A stretch of DNA of 64,000 nucleotides, from the NCBI GenBank assembly GCA_964016885.1, contig OZ024740.1, positions 124,744,001-124,808,000 on the forward strand, given 5' to 3'. The position numbers were made by a program, and so were the translations under genes. Source of the stretch: Eledone cirrhosa (Eukaryota). This document shows, one piece after another, positions 732 through 46,330 of the stretch. The first letter of the stretch is position 1. Each line of letters begins with the position of its first letter. The notes under the pieces were generated by a model. That model did no database searches, was not told where the DNA came from, and worked only from the letters and a program-made list of their open reading frames with translations.

Positions 732-998
732 ACATATATTTATAAATATTTATATATATATACATTTTATATATATAAATACATTTATATATAAGTATGT
801 ACACGTACATACATATATGTTTACCGACGTACAGTAGTATGTATATATATATATACATACATGCACACATATATATATGCACGTATGGATTCACCGAACA
901 TTTATTATAATGCTCGGTGTGTTTGTAAACAAACATCCCGTATTAAGCCGTAGTGTCTAGCGACCACCGTTGCTCGTTTGTTCAACACTGACAAAGGA

Positions 999-1041
999 AC
1001 GCTGTACTAGTTTCAAGCTTGTTAGCTATCGTCAGCAACGT
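999..1041 (-). ncRNA. Minimal type I hammerhead ribozyme (family A)
   Basis: Reverse complement reads acgttg CTGACGA tagct aaca agctt GAAA ctag TA cagcgt. Confidence 0.85.
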
Positions 1042-1624
1042 ATACCTTCCTGCCAGATTGTTGAACGTATATACTTACCTTATGCATATTAACGGCTGAG
1101 TAGCCCAATTTGCATATCGAGTGGGTTAATCGGCCGGGTGCACCGAAAACGATAAACGGAAAAAATGAAACGATATTTCATTTCCCACTCTTAGTACGGC
1201 TGTTACTTAAATATAAGTATGTACACGTACATACATATATGTATACCGACGTACAGTAGTATGTATATATATATATATATACATACATGCACACATATAT
1301 ATATGCACGTATGGATTCACCGAACATTTATTATAATGCTCGGTGTGTTTGTAAACAAACATCCCGTATTAAGCCGTAGTGTCTAGCAACCACCGTTGCT
1401 CGTTTGTTCAACACTGACAAAGGAACGCTGTACTAGTTTCAAGCTTGTTAGCTATCGTACTAACAGCCGTACTAAGAGTGGGAAATGAAATATCGTTTCA
1501 TTTTTTCCGTTTATCGTTTTCGGTGCACCCGGCCGATTAACCCACTCGATATGCAAATTGGGCTACTCAGCCGTTAATATGCATAAGGTAAGTATATACG
1601 TTCAACAATCTGGCAGGAAGGTAT

Positions 1625-1667
1625 ACGTTGCTGACGATAGCTAACAAGCTTGAAACTAGTACAGCGT
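1625..1667 (+). ncRNA. Minimal type I hammerhead ribozyme (family A)
   Basis: acgttg CTGACGA tagct aaca agctt GAAA ctag TA cagcgt; intact core, GUA site. Confidence 0.85.
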
Positions 1668-1959
1668 TCCTTTGTCAGTGTTGAACAAACGAGCAACGGT
1701 GGTTGCTAGACACTACGGCTTAATACGGGATGTTTGTTTACAAACACACCGAGCATTATAATAAATGTTCTGTGAATCCATACGTGCATATATATATGTG
1801 TGCATGTATGTATATATATATATACATACTACTGTACGTCGGTATACATATATGTATGTACGTGTACATACTTATATTTAAGTAACAGCCGTACTAAGAG
1901 TGGGAAATGAAATATCGTTTCATTTTTTCCGTTTACATTTATATATATATATATATATT

Positions 1960-4900
1960 GCAGGGTAGGCTGCTCGCTCGGTGAAATGTAACGTACTAAT
2001 GCTATTTCTTCACTCTTCTCTCCATTTTTTATTCCCTGGTCCATTCATCTATAGGTATCATTTCACCCAGAATCTAATCTTTGCTTCTTCAATGATATTC
2101 GATAATTCTATCGGATTGTTCAAAACAATCTTCTTGTATTTTTTTTAAATTCCCATAATTCTTCTCTTATTAATGTTATGTATGGTTTTTAAATTATGCC
2201 CCAAATTCTAGGATTTCATTTAAACATCCTCGCTAACTACCCCATATCCCTCCCACCCGCCTCCACTCACCACCATTATTACGTGGGTCAAACATAAGTC
2301 AGCGGCCTATGCTATCACTTCTTAAGTTTAGACCTGGTTGCCTTTCGATATGATGGATGGACTACGGAATTCTGGAGAGTTTGAAAAGAAAAAAAATCTG
2401 GACACTCAGTGACAATGCCAAAGATAAAGACAAATTCACCCCATGCTGCCGGACGAGAATGCAAGGACTCCTCCTCTTTGTTTCGGCCGCGGATGGCTAA
2501 CATAATCCCATACCCCCCCCCCCCCCCTGCACCCCACCGTTCCCACCCTCCAAACGCAATCCAAAACTTCAGAGTTGGTACCAAGAATGTAAGCACCTTA
2601 AAAGGTCTCTCTAACGAGGTTGTAGAAATGGTTGTGCGTAAGGAGGTCGATGTTTGCTGTATTGAAGAGACCAGGTGTGGGGGTGGGTCTGCTAGATTCA
2701 TTGTGGGTAAAGAACGATGCTATAAGCTTTTCTTGGTGGGAAATGACAATGGGCTGGGTGGAGTAGGAATCATGGTAGCAGAAAAGTGGGCAGATAAGAT
2801 AATAGACGTAAATAGAGTGAACGACAGAATAATTAAAATAGAACTACTGTGACAATAATATCTGCATATGCACCACAATCCGGACTCCCTGGCGTTATAA
2901 AAGACAGATTCTATGAGACGTTAATGCTCACTACCTCCAAAATAACCGACAGTGACTACATAGTTATCGCTGGCGACCTAAATGGTCATGTAGGACAACA
3001 TTGTGACGGCTATGACGGAATCCATGGAGGCTATGGGTTTGGTACTAGAAATGAGGAAGGCTCCAGAATCCTGGAATTCTGTGACGCAAATAAGCTAACT
3101 ATCTGTAACACTAACTTCAAAAAAACGAGACAATCACTTGGTCACCTATAGATCAGGGGAACACACCAGCTAGGTAGATTATATCCTTACCAGAAGACGT
3201 GACAGAGTGTCTGTGTAAACACTAAATCCCTCCCCCATGAAGAATGCACCTCTCAACATAGACTCATAATTAGCGACCTCAAAGTCAGGACGAGACGTAC
3301 TCGACAACAGAAGAGGACTATCCTCAGGAGAAAAATATGAAAGCTAAAGGACGCCACAGCCAGTAATAAATTTAAAAGCATATTACTTGATGCTTTTGAT
3401 AGTAAGTAAGAGCAATTAGAGTCGTACAATATAGAGGAACAGTGGGAATTCCTGAAAGCTAACCTGCTGAAGGCGACAGATGAAATCTGTGGCTGGAGCA
3501 GACCTATAGGCAGGAGGAGAGTAACTTGGTGGTGTAACAGTAAGGTGGAGGAGTCAATCAAGGCCAAAAAGGAGGCTTAGAAAGCATGGCGGGATGGGGG
3601 GAGTAGAGAAGACTTTCAAGTGGCCAGGAGGGAAGCTAGGAGACAAGTGTACTTCGCAAAAAGGGAAGCAGAGGAAAGAAAGTTCAAGCATGTTCTACAA
3701 CGCGAGGACCAACAACGTGAGGTGTTCAGGATTGCTAGGCAATGTGTTAAGGAAAACCGTGATATTGTCGGGGTGAAGTGTGTCCTTAATGATGATGGTG
3801 TACTTGCCATCACTGACGCTGAGAAGAAGGTAGCATGGAAGTGTCACTACGAAAGGCTACTAAATGAGGAGAATAATTGGGAGAAAGACAGTCTCCCCCA
3901 CATCGACCCAATAGAGGGACCAGCAGTACAAGTTGAAGGTAGTATAATAAGTAAGGCGATCAAAGACATGAAGACGGGCAAGGCGGCCGGGACTTCGGAA
4001 ATAGTTGCTGAAATGCTGAAAGCATCTGGAACGGTGGGACACACTATGGTCACTCGGATAGTAAACCATGTCATACAGAATGGGGTCGTTCCGAAGGACT
4101 GGCGCAGCAGCATCATCATTAACTGCTACAAGGGTAAAGGTGATGCCCTAGATAGGGGAAACTATAGAGGCATTAAATTAATTGACGAGGTCACAGAAGA
4201 AGTAATAGCACAACTAATCAGAGAGCGAATTGATCTAGACGAAATGCAGTTCGGGTGTGTGTCAGGTAAAAGTACAACAGACGCTCTCTTCATTGTACGA
4301 CAACTACAGGAGCAGTACCTAGGTAAAAGTAAACCCCTATACTTAGCCTTTCTTGACTTGGAGAAAGCCTTTGACAGAGTACCCCGCTCGATTATCTGGT
4401 GGGCACTTAGAAAACTAGGTTTTGATGAATGGCTTGTAAGAGCTATACAAGCCATGTATAAAGAAACAGTCAGCACGGTTAGAACTAACAACGAATATAG
4501 TGAAGTGTTTAGAGTAAAAGTTGGTGTTCATCAGGGCTCCGTCCTTAGGCTCCTACTATTTTTTTTGCCCTTCAGTCTATAACAGAGGAGTTCAAGACCG
4601 GTTGCCCATGGGAACTCCTATATGCAGATGATCTAATGCTCATATCTGAATTAATGGCTGAACTAGAGAAGAAATTCCAAACAAGGAAGCATGGCCTAGA
4701 ATCAAAAGGCCTTAAAATTAACCTGTCGAAGACTAAAGTTCTAGTTTGTAGGAAGGAAAATAGGGCAGTGGTCCCATCTGGGAAAGGGCCATGCCCAGTG
4801 TGTAGGAAAGGAGTAGGCAGAAACTCCATTTTATGTCCCAAATGCAAAGTATGGGTGCATAAAAGATGGAGTGGGATCACAGGTAAGCTAACTAAGAACA

Positions 4901-5931
4901 TAGATTTTATATATGGCCGGTGCTCAGGTGCAATAAGTAGCAGCAAGTGCCCACAGAATACTAGCACATTCCATTGCACAGATGGTTCTATAGAAATATT
5001 GGACACCTTCCGTTACCTGGGTGACAAAATCAGCAGTGGTAGAGGGTGCTCTGAAAGTACAGTAGGTAGAGTCAGAACGGGATGGAAAAAGTTCAGAGAG
5101 CTTATACCCCAATTGGCCACTAAAGGGTTCTCTCTAAAAATGAAAGGCAGGCTGTATGATGCCTGCATACGAACAGAAATGTTACATGGCAGTGAGACTT
5201 GGGCATTGTGTGCAGAGGATCTACGCAGACTCGTTAGGAACGAAGCTTGCATGCTCCGTTGGATGTGTAATAGTAATATACGTGAACGGCAAAGCATAAA
5301 TGAACTAAGGGAAAAATTAGGAATAAGAGGAATCAGATGTTGTTTACTCGAGAGAAGACTGCGTTGGTATGGTCACGTGATGCGTATGATAGACGATAGC
5401 TGTATAACAAAGTGCAGGGCGATCAAAATAGACGGTAGCCACGGAGTAGGTAGACCCAGAAAAACCTGGGACGACTTGATAAATTCCGACCTCACACACT
5501 TCTCCAAGACAATGTCACTGGACCGAGATCTTTGGCGCCACACAGTAATACAGAAGACCCACCTTGCCTAAGTACAAAGCGAAACCTACAGTCAGTAGGC
5601 ACCTCTAACAAAAATGCAGCCCCACCCCATCCACACCACCACTTTCGATGTAAAGTTATGTTTGTACCACAACATCCAGTCCGAATAAATGAGGTCGTGT
5701 AGGTGTCACGACAAAAAAACACACAGTCCACGCTGTAATGTGGCCAAGTAGGTAACACCGTAAAAACCTCCCATTCCACACTGTAAACGTGGCTGGAAGG
5801 GCATCCAGCCGTAGAAAACCCGCCAGACAGTCCTATACGAGCAAGACAACCAATCTTGCCTCTATTCGGAAAATTCCCCTCCAAACCCATACAAACGTGG
5901 AAGATGGACGTTAAACGATGATGATGATGAT
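1960..5931 (+). mobile_element. RTE-clade LINE, near full length, disrupted by stops and frameshifts (APE endonuclease + RT + PHD-like finger)
   Basis: APE motifs (DVCCIEET, SAYAPQ, GDLNGHVG); RT motifs (YRGIKL, QFG, DLEKAFDRV, GVHQGS, tatgcagatgat=YADD at 4621); RTE C-terminus RRLRWYGHV..GRPRKTW; (GAT)n tail. Confidence 0.95.
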
Positions 5932-6447
5932 AAAAATATATGTTTTATGTAATTCCGAAGATAAAGCAAAGGAAAAAACGTGTGCTCTGTGTATAGAACA
6001 GAGCTATAAATATATTTTGTTGTTGAAAATATGTGCTAAAGGCAAAGGAAAAACGAGTGCTCTATGTATTGAACAGAGCTCTAAAAATATTTTGTTGTTG
6101 AAAGTATGTGATAAAGGCCCAAGATGCTTAAAATAAGAGAGAATGTTCAGAAAAAGATGAAGTCAATAAGTGAATAATATAAGTGTAAAATAAGTCTAAA
6201 AACAATAAAGTAAAATAAAAAAAAATAAGTGTTGAATATGTAAAAAAGTTCAGGGTGTTTAAAATAAGAGAGAGTGTTCGTGGTTAAAATAATAGAGAGT
6301 GTTCAAGGTAAAAGTAAATGAAGAAATGGATAAACTAGGTATAATATAAAATAAAAGTGTTGAAAATATGTGGTTAAGGGCCAGGTTGGTAAAAATGAGA
6401 GATAATGTTCAGGAAATGATCAAGTCAATAAGTGAATAATATAAGTG

Positions 6448-6642
6448 TAAAATAAAATAAAATAAAATAAAATAAAATAAAATAAAATAAAATAAAATAA
6501 AAATAAAATAAGTATTGAACATTTAAAAAGGGTCTTTAAAAAAGGGAGAGTGTTCGTGGTAAAATAAGAGAGATTTCTCAAGGTAAGCGAAATGAAGTTG
6601 TAGTTCCTGTTTGTTTGTTTGTTTGTTTGTTTGTTTGTTTGT
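6448..6642. repeat. (AAAAT)n and (GTTT)n microsatellites within a degenerate A-rich minisatellite
   Basis: Seen directly. Confidence 0.8.
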
Positions 6643-9186
6643 TCACGAACCCCTCCTATGGTGTTGGAGATAGACCCCTATATATGGAGACATTTGGAGA
6701 TAGACCATATATATTCTGAAACTACATTGCCCAGGGTACTTGGATAAGTATATTTCATTTTAATCAAATGGTTCCCGCTGAAAACCCCTGATGAAAATTG
6801 TTTCCCCTCGATTTATATGAAATTTAAACCATAGGTTTATGGTGCATATTCACAAAAGTTTTTAATTGATATTTTGATAAAAATTATTTACAAGAAACAA
6901 AATAAGAATAAGATTTAATAAATGTAATTTTGATTTGATATATTACAAAAAATAATGTTTTCCAATTTTTCATGCATTACATTTTACATTGAGTAATATT
7001 GAAATGCAGAGTTTTTCTCCATAAATTATATCACTGATTTAAAAGCAATCATTATTTTCTTTCAAAAAAGGTTAACTTTGCCTTTCATCCTTACGGGGTC
7101 GATAAAATAAAGTACCAGTAATGTACTGGATAATTGCTGGCCTTGTGCCTAATGTAGAAACAATAATTTTCTTACAAAAAAGCAATAATTATTTTCTTAC
7201 AAAAAAAAACGTGTGAAATGCAGCAAGGCGCGGGTAATTCAGCTAGTATATATATATATATATATGTATGTATGATCATGAAGACACATAATTTAGTGGG
7301 CAGGGTGTTCAGATCAGGATCATTAGGCTGTTACTTTGATACATGGTGATGGGTCGAATCCTTTAACAAGACACTTATTTTTCATTGCTCCAGTTGACTC
7401 AGCTGGAAAGAATGTGTTGCAGCTGTAATTCAGAGGAGTCAACCTTTTCACACCCTGTATCATTCTGAATCTCCCTGAAAACTAAGTTAAGGGGTGGAAC
7501 TATGTGAAAGTGGACTGCTCAGCTACATGTATCTTAAGTTCATGAGCCAGGTGTTCCATTGTTCACATAACTGGAAGACTCTTCAGAACTGACAGAGGTC
7601 CAATACATGTATGTATCTATGTATGTATGTGTGTGTGTATATATGTATGTTTGCATGTATGTATGTTTATATGTATGTATGATGTATGTATGTTTGTATG
7701 TATGTATATATATGCTAGCGTGGAAGATGGACGTTAAACGATGATGATGATGATATGTGTGTGTTTGTATGTATGAATGTATGTATGTATGCATGAATGT
7801 ATGTATGTATATCTTAGTCTTAGATTCTTCTGCACCGTTCGGCACATCGAGCAGTAAGTACTCGCCAACGGTCACGATCAGCGGCAACTTTTTCGAGACC
7901 GTGCCAGATGATGTTGGATGACATCAGGTCCTTCCGGAACGTTTATATGTATGTATTATGTATGTATGTATTTTGTCTGTATGTGTGTGTGTGTGCATTT
8001 GCCTCAATTGAAGAGTTTGTAAGCATAGGTAAATATAGACTATACAGTTAGGACTGTAACTGTACTTTAAAGCCAAGTGCAAGTCATGGTCATAATTGAA
8101 GCTTGTTGGATATCATTGGCTATGTCTGTTCAACTCAGTTGAATAAAATTAGAAGTGATCAATGTATATAAAAATAGAGGGTATGTAGTAACATTTATAA
8201 TAAATATCAACAATAGAGCTGAAGGAAAAATACCTCAGTAGTGCATACTCTATGTTAAGTACACATTCAGTAGATTTTCACATACATAATTTATTGAGGT
8301 GAATAATTTCTATTAAATGAGATTATCCTTTTCAATACAAGACAAAACTTCCATTCAGTACTGTTCAAAATCTGAAATCAAGTAAACATCCTTAGAATTT
8401 TACTTTATTTCATGTCAGTTAAAATAACCAATTTTGGATGATGTTGTTTAGTACACTCAAACCAAACTCTGCTCTCTTTTTCTTTTTCCAGTGATAACAA
8501 TTTCCAGAATTATATGATTCTAATGTGTTAATCAAGAATCATTTGGTGCGGATGGAATTGTTTTGTTCAGTTTAAATACAAACACCATGACACATTAAAG
8601 TCTCCAAACACCGACAACCAAGCCTGATTCTCCAAGGAAATCAACATTAACAGTGAAAATGTCTTCTTGATTATGTCATCCTCCATGAAGGGATGTTATT
8701 GCATTGCTTTTTTATCATGTTTATTTTCAAGATGTCTCCCTTGGATTATTATCATAAAGTGTTTTCTCTATAATACAGGTGGGGTTTGAGGAAGATTAGA
8801 TCTTGGTTAACAGATAATCGAGTTTTGCTGAGCTAACTACTAACGCATCCATGTGTGGGTGTGTGTGTGTGAACATGTGCTTGGGCGTATACTCCCCCCC
8901 CCATGCTTGGGCGTATACTCCCCCCCCCACGCACACACTCATGTATATATATATATATATATACATATATATAATGTCTGTATACTTCAATATAAATGCA
9001 TTGTATCATCAGATCCCAAATCAGTAATTTGACAATTTCCCTGGTATGTGCATTATTTACAATCAAATTTCATAATGACCTTGCAGATAGCAATTTTAAG
9101 ATGCATCCAATCACATACTAGCCAATGAAACATATATTGGAATAAACACTATTGTATAGCTTATCTGTGTTAATCTTCATTCATTC

Positions 9187-9247
<61 letters not shown>

Positions 9248-9252
<5 letters not shown>

Positions 9253-9627
9253 TATGTATACGTACATACATATATGTATACAGACGTACAGTAGTATGTA
9301 TATACATACATGCACACATAAATATATGTACATATGGGTTTACCGAACATTTATTATAATGCTCAGTTTGTTTGGAAGGTATATGATGCTGATGACAGCT
9401 AATAAGCTAGAAACTAGCTCATCGTTCCTTTGTCAGTGTTGAACAAATAGGGCAGCGATGGTTTCTGAACACTGTACGGCTAATAATTCGGGGTGTTTGT
9501 TTACAAACAAACCGAGCATTATAATAAATGTTCGGTAAAACCATACGTATATATATACGTGTGCATGTATGTATGTATATACATATTACTGTACATCTGT
9601 ATACATATATGTATGTATGTATACATT
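9248..9627. mobile_element. Family A retrozyme array, left part, interrupted by the RTE; HHR copy at 9383-9425 has a mutated NUH site
   Basis: Minus segment then plus segment; atgatg CTGATGA cagct aata agcta GAAA ctag CT catcgt. Confidence 0.75.
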
Positions 9628-12600
9628 TTTGTTATGCTTGTTAAATTATGCCCCAAATACGAGGACTTTATTTAAACTCTTAATCTCTGGTCCCTCCTAT
9701 CTTCACCCCCCCCCCTCTATATCATGCTGGTTCGCCTCCAATACCTTCCGCTCTCTCCAAATATAAAATAAATCCTTTGAAAGTACGAAACTCAGAAACC
9801 GCCAACCCTATTTCAGGCTAGGCTGCAAGCACGGTGAAATGTAGCGTACTAATTGCTATTTCTTCACTCTTCTCTCCATTTTAATTCCCTAGTCCATTCA
9901 TCAATCTGTATCATTTATCCAAGAATCCAATCCATGTTGCTTTTCTATTCGATAATTCTAGTGTACTTTTCAAAACAAATCTTGTATTTCAAAACAAATC
10001 TTGTAATTTTTTATGCTTGTTAAATTATGCCCAAAATACGGGGATCTTATTTAAACCTTAACCTTCTCGCTAATTACCCCATACACCTCCCACCCTCCCC
10101 CAACACACCACCATTATTACATGGGTCAATCATAAGTCGGCGGCCTATGCTATCGCTTACCTGGTTGCCTTTCGATATGATGGATGGACTACGGAATTCT
10201 GGAGAGTTTGAAAAGAAAAAATATGGACACTCAGTGACAATGCCAAAGATAAAGACAAATTCACCCCATGCTGCCGGACGAGAATGCAAGGACTCCTCCT
10301 ACTTGTTTCGGCCGCGGATGGCTAACATAACTCCATCTCCCCTCCCCGCAGCCCCACCGCTCCCGCCCTCCAAACGCAATCCAAAACTTCAGAGTTGGTA
10401 CCATGAATGTAGGCACCCTAAAGGGTCGCTCTAACAAGGTTGTAGAAATGCTTGAACGTAAGAAGGTCGATGTTTGTTGTATTCAAGAGACCAGGTGTGG
10501 GGGTGCATCTGCTAGATTCATTGTGGGTAAAGAACGATATTATAAGCTTTTCTTGGTGGGAAATGACAATGGGCTGGGTGGAGTAGGAATCATGGTAGCA
10601 GAAAAGTGGGCAGATAAGATAATAGACGTAAATAGAGTGAACGACAGAATAATTAAAATAAGACTTGTCCTCAATAGAACTACTGTGACAATAATATCTG
10701 CATATGCACCACAATCCGGACTGCCTGGCGTTATAAAAGACAGATTCTATGAGACGTTAATGCTCACTACCTCCAAAATAACCGACAGTGACTACATAGT
10801 TATCACTGGCGACCTAAATGGTCATGTTGGACAACATTGTGACGGCTATGACGGAATCCATGGAGGCTATGGGTTTGGTACTAGAAATGAGGAAGGCTCC
10901 AGAATCCTGGAATTCTGTGACGCAAATAAGCTAACTATCTGTAACACTAACTTCAAAAAACGAGACAATCACATGATCACCTATAGATCCGGGGAACACA
11001 CTTACCAGGAGACGTGACACAGTGTCTGTTGTAAACACTAAATCCCTCCCCCAAGAATACACCTCTCAACATAGACTCATAATTAGCGACCTCATAGTCA
11101 GGACGAGACGTACTCGACAACAGAAGAGGACTATCCTCAGGAGAAAAATATGGAAGTTAAAAGACCCTACAGCCAGTAATAAATTTAAAAGCATATTACT
11201 TGATGCTTTTGATAGTAAGTAAGAGCAATTAGAGTCGTACAATATAGAGGAACAGTGGGAATTCCGGAAAGCTAACCTCCTGAAGGCGACAGATGAAACC
11301 TGTGGCTGGAGCAGACCTATAGGCAGGAGAAGAGTAACTTGGTGGTGGAACAGTAAGGTGGAGGGGTCAATCAAGGCCAAAAACCAGGCTTGGAAAGCGT
11401 GGCGGGATGGGGGAAGTAGAGAAGACTATCAAGTGGCCAGGAGGGAAGCTAGGAGACAAGTGTACATCGCAAGAAGAGTAGCAGAGGAAAGAAAGTTCAA
11501 GCATGTTCTACAACGCGAGGACCAAAAACGTGAGGTGTTCAGGATTGCTAGGCAATGTGTCATGGAAAACAGTGATATTGTCGGGGAGAAGTGTGTCCTT
11601 AATGATGATGGTGTACTTGCCATCACTGACGCTGATAAGAAGGTAGCTTGGAAGTGTCACTACGAAAGGCTACTAAATGAGGAGAATAATTGGGTGAAAG
11701 ACAGTCTCCCCCACATCGACCCAATAGAGGGACCAGCAGTGCAAGTTGAAGGTAGTATAATAAGTAAGGCGATCAAAGACATGAAGACGGGCAAGGCGGC
11801 CGGGCCTTCGGAAATAGTTGCTGAAATGCTGAAAGCATCTGGAACGGTGGGACACACTATGGTCACTCGGATAGTAAACCATGTCATACAGAATGGGGTC
11901 GTCCGAAGGACTGGCGCAGCAGCATCATCATTAACTGCTACAAGGGTAAAGGTGATGCCCTAGATAGGGGAAACTATAGAGGCATTAAATTAATTGACCA
12001 GGTCACAGAAGAAGTAATAGCACAACTAATCAGAGAGCGAATTGATCTAGACGAAATGCAGTTCGGGTGTGTGTCAGGTAAAAGTACAACAGACGCTCTC
12101 TTCATTGTACGACAACTACAGGAGCAGTACCTAGGTAAAAGTAAACCCCTATACTTAGCCTTTCTTGACTTGGAGAAAGCCTTTGACAGAGTACCCCGCT
12201 CGATTATCTGGTGGGCCCTTAGAAAACTAAGTGTTGATGAATGGCTTGTGAGAGCTATACAAGCCATGTATAAAGAAACAGTCAGCAAGGTTAGAATTAA
12301 CAACGAATATAATGAAGAGTTTAGCGTAAAAGTTGGTGTTCATCAGGGCTGTCCTTAGCCCCCTACTATTTATTATTGCCCTTCAGGCTATAACAGAGGA
12401 TATACGCAGACTGGAGAGAAACGAAGCTTGCATGATCCGCTGGACGTATAATAATACGTGAACGGCAAAGCATAAACGAACTAAGGGAGAAATTAAGAAT
12501 AAGAGGAATCAGATGTTGCTTACTCGAGAGAAGACTACGTTGGTACGGTCATGTGATGCGCATGAAAGACGACAGCTGTATTAAAAAGTGCAGGGCGATA

Positions 12601-13280
12601 AAAATAGACGGTAGCCACGGAGTAGGCAGACCCAGAAAAACCTGGGACGACTTGATAAATTCCGACCTCACACACTTACACCTCTCCAAGACAATGTTAC
12701 TGGACCGAGATCTTTGGCGCTACACAGTTATACAGAAGACCCGACTTGCCTAAGTACAAAGCGAAACCTACAGTCAGAGGCACCTTTAACAAAATACACT
12801 CCCGTCCCACTACCCCCACCCTATCCACAACACCCCCTTAAATGTGAAGTTATGTTGGTACCACAACATCCAGTCCGAAACAAATGAGGTCGTGTAGGTG
12901 TCACGAAAAAAAAACACACAGTCCACGCTGTAATGTGGCCGTGTAGGTAACACGGTAAAAACCTCCCAGTACTTACTGTAAATGTGGTTGTTGTTGGGAA
13001 GAGCACCGAGCCGTAGAAAACCCGCCAGACAAGTAGGTGTCACGACAATAAAACACACAGTCCACGCTGTAATGTGGCCGTGTAGGTAATACGGTAAAAA
13101 ACCTCACAGTCCACACTGTAAACGTGGTTGGTGTTAGGAAGGGAATCCAGCCGTAGAAAACCCGCCAGACAGTCCTGAGCAAGACAACCAATCTTGCCTC
13201 AAGTGGGACAATTCCCGTCCAGACCCATGCTAGCGTGGAAAATTGACGTTAAACGATGATGATGATGATGATGATGATGA
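9628..13280 (+). mobile_element. RTE-clade LINE copy 2, with a ~630 bp internal deletion and a duplicated 3' UTR block
   Basis: ORFs 10403-11017 (APE), 11358-11963 and 12056-12358 (RT); (GAT)n tail; candidate TSD tgtatacat at 9619-9627 and 13281-13289. Confidence 0.93.
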
Positions 13281-13756
13281 TGTATACATACTTATATTTA
13301 AGTATCAACCATACTAAGGGTGAGAAATGAAATTTCATTTTTTCCATTTATCGTTTTCGGTATGCCCGGCCGACTAACTCACTCGATATGCAAATTAGGC
13401 TGCTCAGCCATTAATATGCATAAAGAAAGTATATACTTTCAAACGTTCAATTGACTGACAGAAAGATATACGGTGTTGATGACAGCTAATAAGCTAGAGA
13501 CTAGTTCATCGTTCCTTTGTCAGTGTTGCCAAACACTGTACGGCTAATAATTTGGGCTCTTTGTTTATAAACAAACCGAGCATTTTAATAAATGTTCGGT
13601 AAACCCATACTTACATATATATATATATATGTGTGCATGTATGTATGTATATACATACTACTGTACGTCTGTAAACATATATGTATGTACGTATACATAC
13701 TTATATTTAAGTATCAGCCGTACTAAGAGTGAAAAATGGAATTTCATTTTATCCAT
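13281..13756 (+). mobile_element. Family A retrozyme array, right part; degenerate HHR at 13470-13512
   Basis: Resumes the unit interrupted at 9627; acggtg TTGATGA cagct aata agcta GAGA ctag TT catcgt. Confidence 0.75.
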
Positions 13757-13769
13757 TTATATATATATA

Positions 13770-14515
13770 TGAAAGGCCGACTGTTTGATGCGTGTATATG
13801 AACAACAATGTTACTTAGTAGTGAGACCTGGGCGTTGAAGGTCGAAGACTTACGTAGATTAGAAAGAAACGAAGCCTGCATGCTCCGATGGATATGTAAT
13901 AGTAATATACCCGAACGGCAAAGTATAATTGAATTGAGAGAGAGAGACTGAGCATAAGAGGAATCAAATGCTGTGTGCAGGAGAGGCGGTTGCGTTGGTA
14001 TGGACATATGATGTGTATGAAGGATGACAGCTGCATAAAAAGGTGCAGAGCACTAGAAGTCGATGGAAACCGCGAAGTGGGGAGACCCAAGAAGACCTGG
14101 GATGAGGTGATAAAAGCCGACTTTACCCAATTACACCTCTCAAAGGCGATGACACACGACCGTGATCTCTGGCGTTATGCAGTAATACAGAGTGCACGAC
14201 CTCCAACGGGTACAAGCCGAAGTTGAGGCATATATACTATATGCCCCCACACCCTCCCACTGCAAAGTGGTCGTGGAGGTGCCACAGCAAAAAAGCACCC
14301 AGCCCACACTGTAAAGTGGACGTGTAGGCGCCACAGAAAAAAAGCACCCAGCACGCACTCTAAATGAGGTTGGTGTTAGGAAGGGCATCCAGCTGTAGAA
14401 ATCAAGCCAGAATCAGTTCTTGTATGAGCAAGACAAGGTCAGCCGACCAGACATTGCCCACAACAGGACAACCCGTCTAACCCATGCTAGCGTGGAAGAA
14501 CGTAAAACAGTGATA

Positions 14516-14578
<63 letters not shown>

Positions 14579-14585
14579 CTGATGA
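13770..14585 (+). mobile_element. 5'-truncated RTE LINE (different subfamily)
   Basis: ORF 13975-14226 RRLRWYGHM..GRPKKTW; long (GAT)n tail. Confidence 0.88.
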
Positions 14586-14609
14586 TATATATATATATTA
14601 TGTAATTTG

Positions 14610-16905: not shown

Positions 16906-17127
16906 CACATTTCTGTGGTGACATTTTTAAACAGTTCGGGTCAGTAAAAACATCTATATAAACCACATGATATGACAACTACAGCCTAATAGGTAAAGGT
17001 TTAGTTGTTGTTATACTGGGATTGATTTTGGTAGAATTCTGAAGGACATGATTTTTTTATGTTTAATTTATGTCCAGTGTAGTATGTATCTGGTGTATCA
17101 GATTGAGTTTAGGTGTATGGACAATAT

Positions 17128-17514
17128 TTACTTGGATTGCATTGGTTTTGGAGCAGGGGCATTCACAGATTTAGTGATACCCGGCAACAACTCCTTCAAT
17201 GTATGGCCCAAAGACTCAAGTATAGGATGTAATACTGAGAAAGGTGTGAAAGAAGAGAACTTAACTATATAGAAACAACTAAAACATGAAACAAATACTT
17301 CAAATTAACTTAAAATCAGTCACATAGGTTTGTTCGAATAAAACATCAAATTTTAAGTTAATAACTTACTCAGCCTTTTGATCTGGGCAGGAGAATGAAT
17401 ATAAATCTTGGATAGGTACTTGAGAAATCTGTGGGTGATGTGCTTAGTAGTTATAGAGAATAGAGAGTTTTGCATGATTCTTTTGCTGGAAACCACCTCA
17501 ACCTTCTTAGGCAT
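17128..17514 (-). CDS. Putative two-exon 83 aa ORF (17514-17370 + 17234-17128), unknown product
   Basis: acagccATG start, A|gtaagt donor, tttcacacctttctcag acceptor; frame stays open across the 135 nt intron to TAA. Confidence 0.3.
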
Positions 17515-19180
17515 GGCTGTCGCTAGTTTGGAGTTAATTTGTGTTTATATAAGGGCAATTTACAATTATAGTTGTGTATATATATTTGATGAGATTGTTC
17601 TCAGTTTACATTCAAAATCTATTAGACTACCTATAACATCAGTGAAAGATAATTTCTGAAAATTTCATGCAGTGAGATTAAACGCTAAAGCACATGTATG
17701 TGAAGCAAAATTCTTGACCCTACAACCCTGGCTATTGCTATGGCTGTTGATGGTTAAATAGAAAAGACAAGAATGGTTATAAAATAATGGTTTCTGATTT
17801 TGGCACAAGGCCAAACATTTTGGCAGAGAGGGAAAGTTGATTAAATCTACCCCAGTGCATTACTGCTACTTTATTTTATTTACCCCATAAGGATGAAAAG
17901 CAAAGATAACCTTGGTAGGATTTGAGCTCAGAATGAAAAATTTGGTAACTATTTGCCATAAAGCTTGTACCTGACACTTTATTGATATTGTCAATCTACA
18001 ATTTATAACTTGAATGGTTATAAAATAATAATTTTTCAAGTGCATAAAATAGCAATTATATTGAGTGAACAAATGTGTAAAATCATTCAAAAGTTTTACC
18101 AAAGAACGCCCATTGGATTATGGAGAAAGAGGAAAATAACCTGAAACAATTAATTGTGGGACACAATAAAACTCAGTAACTGGAGAGATATATTTCAATT
18201 TATTTTTCTATTTAAACAGTTTAAACGTCCATCCTAAACGGACGGTAGTCCGTTTAGTAATATTGTTGTGGTCGTGTTATCGTTGGCAATCGTCTGTTTA
18301 CGACAGTACAGCGCGGCTCTACTTTATTTAACTGAGATAAAACTTATATGAGCATGAACAGTAGATCATTACGCATCTTTTGGCTTAGAAATCTAGAAAT
18401 TTGGTCCAGCGGGAAAAAGTTTATAATCAAAGTTTGCTGATAAATCTTGTGTTCAAGTGAGTGAGTAGTAAGTGTGACGCTAGGGAAGGTAATTACAAGT
18501 GGAGGTAATCTAATATATTTCAAATTGTATTTTTAACTAAATTCATTTATCATAGTCTAATATTTTAAAAATAGGTGAGTGCTCCACTATGATGACCCAT
18601 GTCCCCGCCATGTGGAGAGGATGCTTAGGAGCCATCCAGATATCATGTGACCATTTTTGGTTCGCGGTGTCCACATGATATCTAGATGGCCCTTTATACT
18701 AATTAGTCATTTATCTGCATAAAAATTATACCAGATCATTCTGATTATTGGCTTGAAATCTTTTACAAAATTAGTATGAGCAACTAAGAGGTCATCAATA
18801 GAAATAGAACTACTTTTTGAAGTTTTCATGCACAGCATTTTTGGGGATTTTAAATAAAAGTTAATATCATAATTCTTATTTTGTATACCCACATTGCAGA
18901 TACAGAGAAACATGACAATCCTATATAAAGGTCGTAGACAGCAGTATCAGTTTTTATCCGTAACACCATTGAAATGCACAAGTTTCACCAATTCACTATT
19001 ATGCACTAATCATCTCAAATGCATTCATGATTTACTAGCTTTGTCATTAAGCCAGTTGCCTCAACTAGATTGCAATTATACTCAAAAGAACTTTAAAATG
19101 TCAATCACTTGTCAGTAATTCACTATGATCTTTTAATTATTAGATAGTTGTTGCTTGCATTGCCTTAAAAAATAGTAGAC

Positions 19181-20205
19181 CAGATAGAAAAATGCGTACA
19201 GCAAACAAAAGTAATATTGTTGGAATATAAACCTTTAAAAATACAGGACAAGAAACTAAAATAAAACTTTAAAAGAATAGGACAAGAAACTAAGATAAAA
19301 CTTTAAAGAATTGGACAAGAAATAAAAAAATTTACAATAATATTAGTGGCAAAAGTTTTTTATTCGTTTCCTGTGCTATGCCCCAGTATCTTCTTGATTA
19401 GTGCATACTAATTGTCATGCTCTCATAGTACGTTGCCCCTGAGCGGTTGGTTCTGGTTGGGGTTGGTTGGCTGAGCAGTTCTGCTCCGTCAGAATGACCA
19501 GTGCAAGAAGAATTGGCCGATGCAGCTGCAGGTCTCCTCCAAGAATGCACTTCTGGTCCCGCAACACCAGACGAAGATGGAGAAGACGACCGGGACAAGA
19601 TGTCGACTCTGACCACCGACTACGGTACCTCCCTCAACCACCGGTCTTCCCTCCCTCTGTCCCGTCATCCCTCCAGTCCTCCTGCTCCCCCTTCCTGTAC
19701 CAGAAAGCTATGGCACGCATTCATCTGGTGGACTGCCGGACTTGAACTGAAGGACAAGATGCAAGGAGAAGATGGACGGGTTGGTCAAGATCAAGGATGA
19801 GCGGGACGACAAGACCGTCCGCTGCTGCTCAAGATCTGTGCTCATGGGCCCATGGGTCCATTCACATTATGCATGACACATGAGGCGTGTCGCCGAATGA
19901 TGAAATAGGGGTATGGTTATGGCCCAATTGGTGTTCAAACCAGGATCAAATGATCCCCCGGTCTGACGACGACCTCTGAATGTGGAACCCAGAGCCTATG
20001 AATGTGGAACTCGATTTTTTACCAATAGAAATTTTGCCACTAATATTATTGTAACATTTTTTATTTGTTGTCCAATTCTTTAAAGTTTTATCTTAGTTTC
20101 TTGTCCTATTCTTTTAAAGTTTTATTTTAGTTTCTTGTCCTGTATTTTTAAAGGTTTATATTCCAACAATATTACTTTTTTTTGGTGTACGCATTTTTCT
20201 ATCTG
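19181..20205. mobile_element. Foldback/non-autonomous DNA-transposon-like element with ~175 bp inverted arms and a GC-rich interior
   Basis: 19181-19355 is the reverse complement of 20031-20205 (CAGATAG...CTATCTG); each arm holds three ~33 bp ggacaagaaactaaaataaaacttt subrepeats. Confidence 0.7.
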
Positions 20206-20677
20206 ATATAGAGCTTGCTCAGCTATGACAGACTAGGGGAAGTATCTAGTACTTTTTACAGTTAAGAAACCAAAAGCAAGAAATACAGAGATAAAATAAA
20301 AAAAAATATAAAAAATAAATATATAAAATGAAATAAAATAAAATAAAATGAATTTCAACACAAATATACTCATATGCTGGGCTGGCTCGAGACTATTTGG
20401 CATCTTAGGCAAGGTTAAATTCTGGCTCAGCCCCCCACCGGAAAATATCAAAACTTATAAACAATGAATTTAAAAAAATAATTTTTCCACATTTCAGCAC
20501 AGACCAAGGGTAATTTAAAATAAAAAAATTGTGTGCTCAAATGTCTGAACACCCCACAAAAAGCACTAATTGATACCATTTTATTTGCAAAATTAAGACA
20601 AGACTAAAGAAAAATATAAATAGACATTAGTGATGAACTAACAACATAATGGACAGTTGAACAGACGCTCAATACTA

Positions 20678-21972
20678 TTGGGTTGGTGCATAATTATTGC
20701 GGCTTTTTTTCAACAAATTTTATTTAACAAAAACAATAACAATATTTAACAAAAATATCTTTAAATGAAAGTCGGGTTTTTCTCTTTTCAGAATGCGTAT
20801 CAAAATCATATCCACATTCATCATATTATACTCTACCACTTCGAGAAAGGTTGGAATGGAGCACAGTCATTTTCCGATCTCAATGATCTTTTTGGTGAAG
20901 GAACAATCAGCAAAAGCCAAGTTGAAAGATGGTCCAGGAAGTTCAAATCGAGCGATACAAACCTCGCAGATGAAGAGGGAAGAGGTCGACAATCAAATTT
21001 CAACGACCAGGCACTTTTGGCAGCCGTGGAAGAGGACGTATGCTTGACAACGAGAATGTTGGCCGAAGACTTCAATGTGGACCATTCGACCATTGTTCGT
21101 CGTCTCAAAAAGCTCGGAGGAGTATGGAAATTGGCTGGGTGGGTCCCCCACGAACTCTCCGATAACAACAAAGCCGAACGTATCCGAACTTTTACCGATA
21201 AGCTGCAGCGAAATGAGCAAACTCCGTTCCTGAAGAATCTCGTCACTGGGGATGAATCGTGGCTTCTCTTCAAAAACGTCAAAAGAAAGGTGTGTTTCGC
21301 CAGGTGTTTCACCCAAAGGAATACCGAAAGGCGTCCACTGTAAGAAGGCAATGTGGTGTGTTTGGTGGGACAGAAGCGAAATCATTCACTGGGAAATCAT
21401 CTCAAACGGGATTTGTTATTGGTGGAATGACGACGATGAGCGTCAACAGTGGCGGATTCTGGACAAAAACGGCAAGCAGCAATTAAATATCAACGGCAAC
21501 ATTTATCTAGCTCACCTTGACCGCATTCACGCTGCAATCGAGACGAAAAGACCGCGCAAAAAGAACCATATCGTCTACCACCACAATAATGCGCGACCAC
21601 ATGTTGAGCGTCGTGTCGTCGAATCTATAGTCAATAAGGACTGCGAACTGCTTCCTCATCCGCCATATTCTCCCACAGAAGCGCCTACGGACTATCACGT
21701 CAATCGATCGCTGAAAAATTGGTTTGCGAACAAAGTTTCCGACGACTTGGATGACTTGGTTGCCACTGTCAAAGAGTGGATTGCCTCTAAGAACACTAAC
21801 TTCTTCGCCTGTGGAATCGACCGTCTGCCAAGCAAATGGGAAGCAGTAATTGAAGTAGATGGGGAATATGCTCCGGAATATTCATTTAAAGATGTTTTTG
21901 TTAAATGTTGTTATTGTTTTTATTGAATAAAATTTGTTGAAAAAAGGCCGCAATAATTATGCACCAACCCAA
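20678..21972 (+). mobile_element. Full-length mariner (Tc1/mariner DD34D) transposon with frameshifted transposase
   Basis: TA duplication on both sides; inverted ends ttgggttggtgcataattattgcggc extending ~90 bp; WVPHEL, TGDESW, HNNARPH and PYSPTEAPTDYH in ORFs 20765-21343 and 21252-21926. Confidence 0.96.
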
Positions 21973-22775
21973 TAGTACACCGGAAACCAAATATGGCTGA
22001 GGGATACATGCAGACAGAAAGACAATTCAAAATCTCATTTTGTGTGCCTTTTTCTCGGCAAAGTTTTTAACCAATTCAGCTAAACCAAGTGATAAAGCCT
22101 GAGCATGTTCCATTAATATAGTTGCCAAGCCAACCAGTCTCTCTTGCGACATTGTAGAGTGAATGTAAGATTTTAAATGCTTCAGCTTTTAAAACAATTC
22201 TGACCACTTTCCACTGATACTGGACATGTGAGAAGGATCCTCAATGCAATAATAACATTAGGGAAATTATCCAAAAGTTTTTGTTGGAAAAATTTGTGGC
22301 CTATAAAAACACACAAGCGTAATTGCACTCTTAAAGTTTGGTATATGCACAGTTTTCACTCACTCATTTTCCTTGTTCTGGTCAGACTAATCTACCTGAT
22401 TATTTGTCACTGTATGGAATAAGCCAGGATCAAAAACGACCCTCAATAAAACAGAAATTCATTTATTTATTTTTCAAAATTGTTGTTGATTTGGAGAAAT
22501 GTGCCTGTGAAATCAGCGCCCTAGGCAGCTGCCTAGTTCGCTTATATGGTAGTGACAGCTCTGCTCATATGTTATTTTATCTAAAACTTACTAGTAAAAG
22601 ATGTGTTTAAGCATAAAAACACACACTGACATATGCATAAGCCACTCTCTCTATATATATATATATACAAGTGGAAGTTTAGTAAAATCGTTTGGCAGGT
22701 TTGCACGAAGCATATATACGTCTGGGACTAGCTGTTGAAATGGTAGAAGCTCAAACATCGAGGTCCTGACTCAAT

Positions 22776-22844
<69 letters not shown>

Positions 22845-22849
<5 letters not shown>

Positions 22850-22897
22850 TATGTGTGTATACGTACATACATATATGTATACAGACGTACAGTAGCA

Positions 22898-22941
<44 letters not shown>

Positions 22942-23628
22942 CAGGTACACATACATATATGCACGTATCAGTTTAGCGGACGCTTATTATAACGCCGCTT
23001 TGTTCGTTTGTAAACAAACTGAACAGCCTGAATGTTATGCCGTACGGTGTTAAGGCAACCACGTCACCTGTTTGTTCAACACTGACACAGGAACGATGTA
23101 CTAGTTTCAAGCTTGTTAGCTATCATCAACACCGTATACCCATCTGCCAGATAGTTGAACGTTCGAAAGTATATACTTTCCTTATGAAAATTAACGGCTG
23201 AGCAGCCTAATTTGCATATCGAGTGAGTTATGTCGGTCAGGCATACCGAGAACGATAAGTTGAAATAAAATGAAAACGAAATTTCATTTCTCACTCTAGT
23301 ACGGCACTTACTTAAATGTAAGTATGTGTGTATGACCGACATAACTCACTCGATATGCAAATTAGGCTGCTCAGCCGTTAATTTTCATAAGGAAAGTATA
23401 TACTTTCGAACGTTCAACTATCTGGCAGATACGGTGCTGATGATAGCTAACAAGCTTGAAACTAGTACATCGTTCCTGTGTCAGTTTTGAACAAAAAGGT
23501 GACGTGGTTGCCTTAACACCGTACGGCATAACATTCAGGCTGTTCAGTTTGTTTACAAACGAACAAAGCGGCGTTATAATAAGCGTCCGCTAAACTGATA
23601 CGTGCATATATGTATGTGTACCTGTATG

Positions 23629-23684
<56 letters not shown>

Positions 23685-23795
23685 TGCTACTGTACGTCTG
23701 TATACATATATGTATGTACGTATACACACATACTTACATTTAAGTAAGTGCCGTTCTAGAGTGAGAAATGAAATTTCGTTTTCATTTTATTTCAA

Positions 23796-23797
<2 letters not shown>
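22845..23797. mobile_element. Family A retrozyme inverted array between (TA)n tracts
   Basis: Minus arm to ~23333 (HHR 23093-23135, core TTGATGA); plus arm after it. Confidence 0.8.
23431..23473 (+). ncRNA. Minimal type I hammerhead ribozyme (family A)
   Basis: acggtg CTGATGA tagct aaca agctt GAAA ctag TA catcgt. Confidence 0.85.
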
Positions 23798-23850
<53 letters not shown>

Positions 23851-23856
<6 letters not shown>

Positions 23857-25380
23857 TAAAATAACAGATTAAAGTTTAAGCAAAGAATCGCTGCTTTCAC
23901 CCTTAACGGGATCTTCTGAAACTAACAAAGTCAATCTGTAAACGCAGAACTGGATATTTCAAAAAACGTTGCAACCGGAGGAAGACAGGAAGACGATACT
24001 TTGGTTCGTGGTAACGTTCGCTGGCAAAGAACGGGAAAAAACGAATATAATACGTCATTAATAGGAGCGGTGAAAAACAATTACGCGCAAAGACAGAACC
24101 ACGTTTATGGCATAAGAGAGGTCGTAGACTAATGTTTTCTCATGTAGTTCATAGAGACGTCCTCTAGCAATGAACGAAAAAAACGAATAATACGTCATTA
24201 ATAGGAGCGGTGAAAAACAATTACGCGCAAAGACAGAACCATGTTTATGGTATAAAGGAGGTCGTAGATTAATGTTCTCTTAGGTGGTGCATAGAGACGT
24301 TCTCTGGCAATGAACGAAAAAACAAAGATAATACGTCATATGTGGAGCGTGGAGAACAATAGCACGCAAAGACAAAACCACGTAAATGGTATAGCAGAAG
24401 TCCTAGACTAAAATTCTAACTAGGAGACCTAATGAATCTCCGCTACAGAGTTAAGAACAAAGTAAATAAATACAACACAGAAGAAATAGAAATAAATAAA
24501 AACATACACGCAAACAAATACGTACATACACAAGCATACGCAAAACACTTACCATAGGTATACAAAACCACGCACATATAAATATGTGTGTGTGTGTATG
24601 CGTGTATACAAATAAATAAATAATTATATAAACGTATATAAATAAATAAACACGTATATAACAAGCGCAAACACATACCTACATGTAAATACACGAATGT
24701 TCGGAGACGTAAGTCAACCAAAACATGAAGTACACATATACACACACCCACATACGTACGAACCAGCAAACTCACACAGACGCAAAACTCCCGTATACAC
24801 ATAGCCAAACCATATGTACCAGAATATAGCGGAGATTCATTCGGTCTCCTAGTTAGAATTTTAGTCTATGACTTCTGCTATACCATTTACGTGGTTTTGT
24901 CTTTGCGTGCTATTTTTCTCCACGCACCACATATGACGTATTATCCTCGTTTTTTTTCGTTCATTGCTAGAGGACGTCTCTATGAACCACCTGAGAGAAC
25001 ATTAGTCTATGATCTCTCTTATACCATAAACGTGGTTCTGTCTTTGCGCGTAATTGTTTTTCACCGCTCCTATTAATGACGTATTATATTCGTTTTTTCC
25101 CGTTCTTTGCCAGCGAACGTTACCACGAACCAAAGTATCGTCTTCCTGTCTTCCTCCGGTTGCAACGTTTTTTGAAATATCCAGTTCTGCGTTTACAGAT
25201 TAACTTTGTTAGTTTCAGAAGATCCCGTTAAGGGTGAAAGCAGCGACTCTTTGCTTAAACTTTAATCTGTTATTTTAATAAATATTTGCTCTACGGTTCT
25301 TATATATTTGACATATATTATCCTTATCGAGCCCTCTTTGGATTTTAGTCTTCAAATTTATTATTATTACTATATATATA
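23851..25380. mobile_element. Family B large inverted-repeat element with ~140 bp internal tandem units, flanked by (TA)n
   Basis: 23851-24444 is mirrored by 24827-25283 (one internal unit fewer); internal repeats at 24051, 24191 and 24332; a deleted copy at 26943-27240. Confidence 0.75.
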
Positions 25381-25617
25381 TATATAAATGTAAGTATGTA
25401 TGTATGTATACGTACATACATATATGTATACAGACGTACAGTAGTATGTATATATATATATATACATACATGCACACATATATATATGCACGTATCGTTT
25501 TACCGAACATTTATTATAATGCTCGGTTTGTTTGTTTGTAAACAAACAAACAGCCCAAATTACGCCGTACAGTGTTTAGGCAGCCACGTCACCTTTTTGT
25601 TCAACACTGACACAGGA

Positions 25618-25660
25618 ACGATGTACTAGTTTCAAGCTTATTAGCTATCGTCAGCATCGT
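25618..25660 (-). ncRNA. Minimal type I hammerhead ribozyme (family A)
   Basis: Reverse complement reads acgatg CTGACGA tagct aata agctt GAAA ctag TA catcgt. Confidence 0.85.
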
Positions 25661-26184
25661 ATACCTTCCTGCCAGATGGTTGAACGTCTGAAAGTATATA
25701 CTTTCCTTATGCATATTAACGGCTGAGCAGCCTAATTAGCATATCGAGTGAGTTCAGTCGGCCGGGCACACTGAAAACGATAAATGGAATAGAATGAAAC
25801 GAAATTTCATTTCTCACTCGTTAATATGCATAAGGAAAGTATATACTTTCAGACGTTCAACGGATGTTTGTTTACAAACACACGGAGCATTATAATGAAT
25901 GTTCGGTGAATCCATACGTACATATATATATGTGTGCATGTATGTATATATATATACATACTACTGTACGTCTGTATACATATATGTATGTACGTATACA
26001 TACTTATATTTAAGTAACAGCCGTACTAAGAGTGAGAAATGAAATTTCGTTTCATTTTTTCCGTTTATCGTTTACGGTACCCCGGCCGATTAACTCACTC
26101 GATATACAAATTAAGCTGCTCAGCCGTTAATATGCATAAGGAAAGTATATACTTTCAGACTTCAACAATCTGGCAGGAAGGTAT

Positions 26185-26227
26185 ACGTTGCTGACGATAG
26201 CTAATAAGCTTGAAACTAGTACAGCGT
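26185..26227 (+). ncRNA. Minimal type I hammerhead ribozyme (family A)
   Basis: acgttg CTGACGA tagct aata agctt GAAA ctag TA cagcgt. Confidence 0.85.
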
Positions 26228-26612
26228 TCCTTTGTCAGTGTTGAACAAATGAGCAACGATGGTTGCTAGACACTGTACGGCTTAATTCGGGATGTTTGTT
26301 TACAAACACACCGAGCATTATAATGAATGTTCGGTGAATACATACGTACATATATATATGTGTGCATGTATGTATATATATATACATACTACTGTACGTC
26401 TGTATACATATATGTATGTACGTATACATACTTATATTTAAGTAACAGCCGTTCTAAGAGTGAGAAATGAAATTTCGTTTCATTTTTTCCGTTTATCGTT
26501 TACGGTACCCCGGCCGATTAACTCACTCGATATACAAATTAGGCTGCTCAGCTGTTAATATGCATAAGGAAAGTATATATTTTCAGACTTCAACCATCTG
26601 GCAGGAAGGTAT

Positions 26613-26655
26613 ACGTTGCTGACGATAGCTAATAAGCTTGAAACTAGTACAGCGT
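26613..26655 (+). ncRNA. Minimal type I hammerhead ribozyme (family A)
   Basis: Identical motif 428 bp downstream of the previous copy. Confidence 0.85.
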
Positions 26656-26862
26656 TCCTTTGTCAGTGTTGAACAAATGAGCAACGATGGTTGCTAGACA
26701 CTGTACGGCTTAATTCGGGATGTTTGTTTACAAACACACCGAGCATTATAATGAATGTTCGGTGAATACATACGTACATGTATATATGTGTGCATGTATG
26801 TATATATATATATATACATACTATTGTACGTCTTTATACATATATGTATGTACATATACATA

Positions 26863-26947
<85 letters not shown>

Positions 26948-27235
26948 TAAAATAACAGAATAAAGTTTAAGCAAAGAATCGTTGCTTTCACTCTTAACGT
27001 GATCTTCTGAAACTAACAAAGTCAATCTGTGAACGCAGAAGTAAATATTTCAAAAAACGTTGTAACCGGAGGAAGACAGGAAGACGATACTTTGGTTCGT
27101 GGAAATGTTCCCTGGCAAAGAACGGGAAAAAACGAATATAATACGTCATTATTTGATCTACGGTTCTTATATATTTGATATATATTTATCCTTATCGAGC
27201 CCTCTTTGGATTTTAGTCTTCAAATTTATTATTAT

Positions 27236-27321
<86 letters not shown>

Positions 27322-27525
27322 GTGTGTTTAATGGTAGCTATGGTGCATCCATAGGCGGTATACCAAAATTAGCACTCAATATTCTTACAGAGCAGAGTGT
27401 GAATAGTATAAAAAAACGAAAAATCAGTGTACAGTGATCATGTCTCGAGCTTTATGCCGGCGAAACAATTGTAACACGCAATAAACTGAGTCCAGATGCA
27501 TCACTGATTTTTCGTTTTTTTATAC

Positions 27526-27591
<66 letters not shown>

Positions 27592-27597
<6 letters not shown>

Positions 27598-30383: not shown

Positions 30384-30511
30384 CACATTTATACATATAT
30401 ATGTATGTATATATATATACATATATATATATACATACATATATATGTATATATATATATAGAGAGATGGAAAACGAAAAGTCAGCGATACAGCGGAACT
30501 CAATTTATTGT

Positions 30512-45691: not shown

Positions 45692-45732
<41 letters not shown>

Positions 45733-46294: not shown

Positions 46295-46330
<36 letters not shown>

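Follow-up and report, generated by a model that had tools for sequence, protein, structure and literature searches.

Circular RNAs and self-cleavage have been demonstrated for animal non-long-terminal-repeat (non-LTR) retrozymes (Cervera and de la Pena 2020, PMC7229834), and Li, Clavereau and Pollet (2026, bioRxiv 10.64898/2026.07.22.740005) report that retrozymes depend on, or derive from, Penelope-like elements (PLEs). Insertions of the latter are tandem and inverted, 5'-truncated, often provided with a 30-40-bp tail at one end and biased towards microsatellites, and the non-autonomous, head-to-tail Chlamys elements offer a precedent among PLEs (Craig et al. 2021, PMC8557442); once purified, the protein of a PLE acts on both strands of AT-rich DNA, cutting and extending them, and starts cDNA at two internal sites that define the tail, and in vitro the cleavage of the hammerhead ribozyme is dispensable for insertion (Frangieh et al. 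2024, PMC11167929). In the consulted parts of these sources, to which all our statements on them refer, neither the enzyme that copies animal retrozymes nor the RNA form that is copied is established. Here we describe family A, a ~430-bp non-coding repeat with one type I hammerhead per unit, starting from five loci in a stretch of 64,000 nucleotides (the window) of the Eledone cirrhosa genome (assembly GCA_964016885.1, contig OZ024740.1, positions 124,744,001 to 124,808,000 of the forward strand), which lies on a 443-Mb contig within a 3.0-Gb genome.

Family A resembles the animal non-LTR retrozymes of PMC7229834 in its low-GC, non-coding tandem units with a single type I hammerhead each, in the self-pairing of its monomer and in its thousands of dispersed copies, and it has no layout of LTR, primer-binding site and polypurine tract. 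Its helix III, made of one pair and a palindromic tetraloop, is like that of axolotl HHR_Amex1, and the U.U at the base of helix II is like that of HHR_Amex2; at 420-500 bp, the units of family A and of a sister family are at or above the 170-400 nt of animal retrozymes. Circles and cleavage, demonstrated for the latter, are predicted for family A, and its fixed internal 3' ends, inverted arms and microsatellite targets are features not described for the retrozymes in the consulted part of PMC7229834. Two internal start sites, a tail at one end, AT-rich targets and inverted, 5'-truncated copies are instead traits of PLEs (PMC11167929, PMC8557442), from which family A differs by having no open reading frame (ORF), by a longer tail (~56-76 nt versus 30-40 bp; PMC8557442) and by arrays of exact units rather than partial tandems. 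The Xenopus study of Li and colleagues relied on co-occurrence and on homology to pseudo-LTRs, whereas in family A the link is the insertion footprint, with no homologous pseudo-LTR found among the PLE loci sampled.

Insertion arms were mapped in the window and in 206 fetched loci, yielding 253 arms after removal of duplicates, 236 of which are at least 100 bp long. The 3' ends of 195 of these 236 arms lie at one of two fixed sites, S1 and S2, whose acceptance windows cover ~13% of the unit; S1 sits in the loop of a small hairpin ~215 nt past the predicted hammerhead cut site, and S2 is 56-76 nt further on. The S1/S2 ends lie mostly in (TA)n; TA-rich DNA follows 147 of the 195, versus seven of the 41 other ends, and the 5' ends are scattered along the unit. 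Moreover, 69 pairs of arms are arranged head-to-head, and where both ends could be classed (50 pairs) an S1 end is combined with an S2 end in 47, the remaining three being S1/S1 and none S2/S2 (binomial p 2e-11; with a duplicated locus entered only once, 46 of 49). The inverted pairs of the sister family, judged by eye, are S1+S2 in nine out of nine. Because the two fixed 3' ends, the TA targets and the inverted S1+S2 arms match the footprint of PLEs, PLE-type mobilization is very probable on this sequence evidence, and family A as a whole is likely to be a non-LTR retrozyme moved by the reverse transcriptase (RT) and GIY-YIG endonuclease of a PLE. This signature is the strongest clue to mechanism, and it had been missed by a first, sequence-only reading of the window. 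The class was already known and its dependence on PLEs already proposed, so that family A is a new member of it; a literature search, whose scope left aside subscription papers and supplements, returned no description of family A or of an S1/S2 rule for retrozymes.

The sequence-only reading had counted four family A loci where mapping resolves five (785-1935, 9243-9626, 13282-13760, 22840-23800 and 25396-26872), and it did not mention that four of the five have an inverted two-arm layout; its tandem period of 426-428 bp agrees with the spacing of hammerheads within arms (426 bp for 1036 versus 1462 on the minus strand, 428 bp for 26190 versus 26618). Insertions 1 and 4 are of the S1+S2 type, insertions 2 and 5 of the S1/S1 type; insertion 5 likely represents two events, because both of its arms end at S1 and the arms differ in variant. 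Ten hammerhead positions are found on the two strands, six with an exact core, three with a changed core and one truncated. The features are as follows.

785-1458, minus strand: insertion 1 (785-1935), minus arm of 1.6 units whose 3' end, within a TA tract, is at S1
999-1041, minus strand: hammerhead of insertion 1, intact type I, U.G variant of stem I, loop II AACA
Ending at 1462, minus strand: hammerhead 5'-truncated within its core
1461-1935, plus arm of insertion 1, head-to-head with the minus arm; 3' end at S2, followed by TA
1625-1667, plus strand: hammerhead of insertion 1, intact type I, predicted cut after 1661
9243-9626: insertion 2, short inverted pair of the GUU-site subfamily with S1/S1 ends
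9383-9425, plus strand: hammerhead of insertion 2 with a private U16.1->C change
13282-13760, plus strand: insertion 3, one arm only, GUU-site subfamily, with its 3' end at S2 and TA beyond
13470-13512, plus strand: hammerhead of insertion 3 with private C3->U and A14->G changes
22840-23800: insertion 4, minus arm to S1 and plus arm to S2, G.U-variant subfamily
23093-23135, minus strand: hammerhead of insertion 4 with a C3->U change
23431-23473, plus strand: hammerhead of insertion 4, intact
25396-25819: minus arm of insertion 5, A-U variant, ending at S1, with a hammerhead at 25618-25660
25862-26872: plus arm of insertion 5, 2.3 units of 428 bp, ending at S1
26185-26227, plus strand: 43-nt type I hammerhead of the insertion 5 plus arm, predicted cut after 26221
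26613-26655, plus strand: second 43-nt type I hammerhead of the same arm
26222-26649, plus strand: full unit of 428 nt from cut site to cut site, no ORF
26430-26443, plus strand: site S1, a small hairpin whose loop is the first fixed 3' end of insertions and the presumed start of reverse transcription
26435-26495, plus strand: S1-S2 tail of ~60 nt containing a hairpin and closed by S2, the second fixed 3' end, at 26495

Scanning of the unit at 26222-26649 revealed no ORF, and no coding frame for RT plus GIY-YIG. At a further locus (L068, 2827-3373), very short family A pieces that barely extend beyond the S1-S2 tail are repeated in TA tracts beside a longer copy.

The 43-nt motif consists of a 6-bp stem I, CUGA(C/U)GA, a stem II in which a U.U base is followed by four pairs, a loop II of AACA or AAUA, and GAAA-CUAG-UA; its core elements CUGANGA, GAAA and NUH and its stems I-III follow the type I order, with H17 being A, U or C across subfamilies. 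Rfam scans matched no hammerhead model, either at the gathering score or at E up to 10, so the type I assignment is made from the fit of core and stems, by which the repeat is a type I hammerhead carrier predicted to be self-cleaving. The window and 176 fetched loci together yielded 229 distinct hammerhead contexts; their third stem I pair is U.G in 111, G.U in 82, A-U in 23, U-A in four, C-G in three and unpaired in six. These data bear out the 43-nt hammerhead, its N7 (C/U) and loop II (AACA/AAUA) variation and the U.G, G.U and A-U states that the sequence-only reading had noted at one stem I pair; its term 'minimal' holds only in part, as stem I extends past an internal loop and helix III consists of a single pair with a palindromic tetraloop.

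Stems I and II form in the predicted fold, in which opening the core costs 1.4 kcal/mol, the computed energy of the loop III self-duplex is -4.8 kcal/mol, and the monomer folds considerably better than shuffled sequences (z -7.4, or -4.0 without the AT-rich tract). Cleavage of the monomer is probably slow, given the single pair of helix III and the U.U with which stem II begins; in salamanders, a one-pair helix III with palindromic tetraloop supports efficient cleavage of the dimer (PMC7229834).

The 31-nt core pattern has 24,001 exact matches in the genome, compared to none for a reversed control. A GUU-site subfamily accounts for 806 pattern matches and usually has an intact core, with C.A, not U.U, as the basal pair of stem II. 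The copies at 9383 and 13470, described before as core-damaged, do carry damage, but their changes are private (found in one or two of the 100 matches listed) and their subfamily is usually intact; a further damaged copy, not noted earlier, lies at 23135-23093 on the minus strand (C3->U). Although private core damage is present in many family A copies, each amplified subfamily examined retains a core that appears fit for cleavage. A relaxed pattern also uncovered the sister family, with units of 466-469 bp and 9,497 matches, which is ~60% identical to family A and has its modules in the same order.

Within family A a single stem I pair varies on both sides, corresponding to two or three events, and the one varying pair of the window would by itself be weak evidence for selection. 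In an alignment of 11 chosen copies of family A and the sister family, changes on both sides affect six of 15 pairs, with compensation in stems I and II, 95.7% of cells are paired (34-51% in slid control structures), and the covariation score is reached by none of 500 shuffles, although the alignment consists of related sequences with few independent events, so that kinship alone can beat shuffles. More telling than the shuffle test is the core itself, which differs between the two families only at N7 and H17 despite 40% divergence. Because stems compensate across families while the core is unchanged, source elements appear to be selected for the fold. The earlier proposal of selection on RNA structure in source elements thus gains support from the sister family and the subfamilies, not from the window alone, and the reading of the repeat as retrozyme-type is likewise supported by its tandem non-coding units, one type I hammerhead in each, and high copy number.

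The same insertions bear on the form of the copied RNA. A cut linear monomer used as template would halt cDNA at the cut site, but 5' junctions there, recognized by three unrelated bases upstream, number 26 genome-wide versus 54 at a control position (raw counts of two patterns, with per-pattern denominators outside the comparison), and at least 22,679 copies have an intact core upstream of the cut site as expected of read-through; the lack of an excess leaves a circle or an uncleaved multimer as template. Apparent 5' ends at the cut site in the arm mapping were discarded as mostly alignment artefacts, and the genome-wide count has no excess. One young insertion has 17 of 17 identical monomers over both arms and another has two alternating unit types, which fits what rolling-circle copying of a monomer or a dimer would give. 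With respect to arm subfamily, 35 of the 69 pairs are concordant, 33 unclear and one discordant. Excision and circularization of ~427-nt monomers, as suggested previously, is plausible because mussel, coral and axolotl retrozymes do so (PMC7229834), and read-through is compatible with it; on balance, we lean slightly towards a circular rather than an uncleaved linear template.

These observations can be assembled into a mechanism in which tandem copies would be transcribed and the hammerhead, probably as a dimer formed through the palindromic loop III, would release RNA of unit length, to be circularized by a host ligase. A PLE protein would then bind the S1-S2 region and nick both strands of a (TA)n tract, with S1 as the start of cDNA at one DNA end and S2 as its start at the other; each cDNA would pass the cut site and round the unit, giving seamless tandems with random 5' ends, and the two cDNAs would finally be joined head-to-head. 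The insertions may thus record rolling-circle reverse transcription of a ribozyme-made circle by a PLE of Neptune/Nematis type, with one site used per cut TA end and coding PLE RNA able to supply one arm, a tentative proposal that we judge only a little short of probable. If true, it names the class of mobilizing enzyme for animal retrozymes and supplies a defined substrate, namely the S1-S2 region plus a TA target.

A second reading, doubtful but quite possible, is that family A is a non-autonomous PLE copied from uncleaved linear multimers, with a hammerhead that only trims or acts late with protein help and no circle as template. In an anole PLE, hammerhead mutants inserted like the wild type, the substrate was mainly uncut RNA and RNA-seq gave no ends at the cut site (PMC11167929); the probably slow cleavage of the monomer points the same way, read-through of the cut site suits uncleaved multimers equally, and a mixed insertion at locus L074, one arm of which is coding PLE sequence, indicates that two arms can derive from different RNAs. 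Seamless arrays built of up to 31 unit lengths and bounded by an S1 and an S2 end would, however, need very long linear templates, 5' truncation would shorten the arrays at each round unless they were regenerated, and in mussel, coral and axolotl the related repeats build up circular RNAs (PMC7229834).

Sequence of PLEs with a C-terminal GIY-YIG domain abounds in the genome (41,022 first-look candidates, 150 of them scored), and Pfam searches of PLE pieces gave RVT_1 and GIY-YIG matches, all below threshold; these pieces are probably of Neptune/Nematis type, as judged by the motif description in PMC8557442 and not by a tree. Three insertions join the 5' end of family A directly to coding PLE sequence: in L068/L012 it is joined in sense behind a PLE 3' untranslated region (UTR), in L100 in sense within a two-arm PLE insertion, and in L074 the sequence joined to it, placed head-to-head, is a 5'-truncated piece of the endonuclease from another PLE family. 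The window itself contains a 5'-truncated PLE piece (27593-28665, minus strand) with a broken GIY-YIG endonuclease and an upstream cysteine motif, ending in a TA tract, and its 3' UTR (~27697-27819) includes a hammerhead-like motif with CUGAGGA, a long stem II and GAAA-CAAUUG-UA.

It is very improbable that family A merely represents 5'-truncated copies of an autonomous PLE, whose pseudo-LTR it would be. Coding PLEs do share its insertion footprint, and pseudo-LTRs bear type I hammerheads (PMC8557442; bioRxiv 10.64898/2026.07.22.740005), but family A arrays are seamless head-to-tail units devoid of coding sequence, whose many-unit arms never reach an ORF at a fixed place; the coding PLE family of the window has a 3' region and a hammerhead that differ from those of family A, and the three joins to coding sequence each fall at a different position in the unit, with two PLE families as partners. 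Still less probable is that family A is a satellite dispersed by processes at the DNA level whose hammerhead is a vestige, for although higher-order variant patterns in long arrays suggest unequal crossing-over and many copies have private core damage, the fixed 3' ends, random 5' ends, TA targets and S1+S2 rule are marks of retrotransposition, and the amplified subfamilies examined all keep a core predicted to be cleavable.

Several points count against the proposed retrozyme moved by a PLE through a circular template. The evidence for it comes entirely from DNA, which an uncleaved multimer appears to fit equally well, and the loci were chosen by intact core or high similarity, many of them from the first 30 Mb of one contig, so that the sample is skewed to young copies. 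Within it, 41 of the 236 arms end outside S1 and S2, and 19 of the 69 pairs are unclassable. In long arrays, variants recur with higher-order periods, a pointer to some expansion at the DNA level as well. In a single-template test, the within-locus distance exceeded that to the nearest other copy in 44 of 59 cases, a distance that carries no template signal, since the copies spread from sources that are nearly identical. The three joins to coding sequence fit one enzyme handling both RNAs but may be due to chance, and PLE-like matches also occur in the 3' flanks of family A insertions. Finally, an autonomous PLE with family A as pseudo-LTR was not found in 30 loci and nine longer stretches, where one PLE family was followed in depth.

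Family A alone reveals no new ribozyme biology; what it offers on the questions of enzyme and RNA form is tens of thousands of copies with countable footprints, that is a pair of start sites of which each arm takes one, copying that does not halt at the cut site, and occasional mixes with coding PLEs. The question thereby becomes testable with a defined RNA, target and candidate enzyme.

As newt satellite 2 is reported to use a small nuclear RNA (snRNA) promoter (PMC2220036), an internal promoter of this type was also considered for the repeat and rejected. Of 95 monomers, 80 contain an octamer-like ATGCAAAT, which occurs in both family A and the sister family; the exact octamer occurs in none of 21 host U1/U2 upstream regions, and the motif shared by these regions is not clearly present in the repeat. 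The U1/U2 upstream regions themselves (L253-L279, 320 bp) have two motifs in common, a TTACCTCCCTT-like one around -260 and TCAGT around -57. A similar TTACCTCCC motif is found in the 3' UTR of the window PLE family (L064, L069 and window ~28150), which may borrow an snRNA-type promoter element.

Other repeats surround these insertions. A TA-inserted repeat in inverted arrangements (27320-27520, 29040-29330 and 30470-30700) has on its minus strand GAAA-CAAUUG-UA and a CCGAGGA-type core like that of the window PLE, and may be a related hammerhead family. A third repeat, made internally of 140-bp tandems (23850-24440, 24850-25290 and 26950-27240) lies directly past the TA tracts of insertions 4 and 5 and has a TGCTTAAAC-like end motif before TA that resembles the PLE 3' end. 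Four stretches (2400-5930, 10200-13280, 33385-36200 and 44365-47780) are, by their motifs, presumably decayed retrotransposons of the long interspersed nuclear element (LINE) type with endonuclease-RT frames and (GAT)n ends; on the same kind of evidence, 20673-21977 is presumably a mariner-like DNA transposon with terminal inverted repeats, and 54200-64000 a second LINE family. At the left edge, 1-690 belongs to a 587-bp tandem unit with a long T run and CTGATGA at ~516, and a copy of it extends leftwards out of the window (L175). Several more repeat families that bear hammerheads, with different palindromic loop III sequences, are seen at L070 (4439-5717), at L074, L086 and L142, at L003 and L170, and at window position 51612, and one of them forms a 310-bp tandem array.

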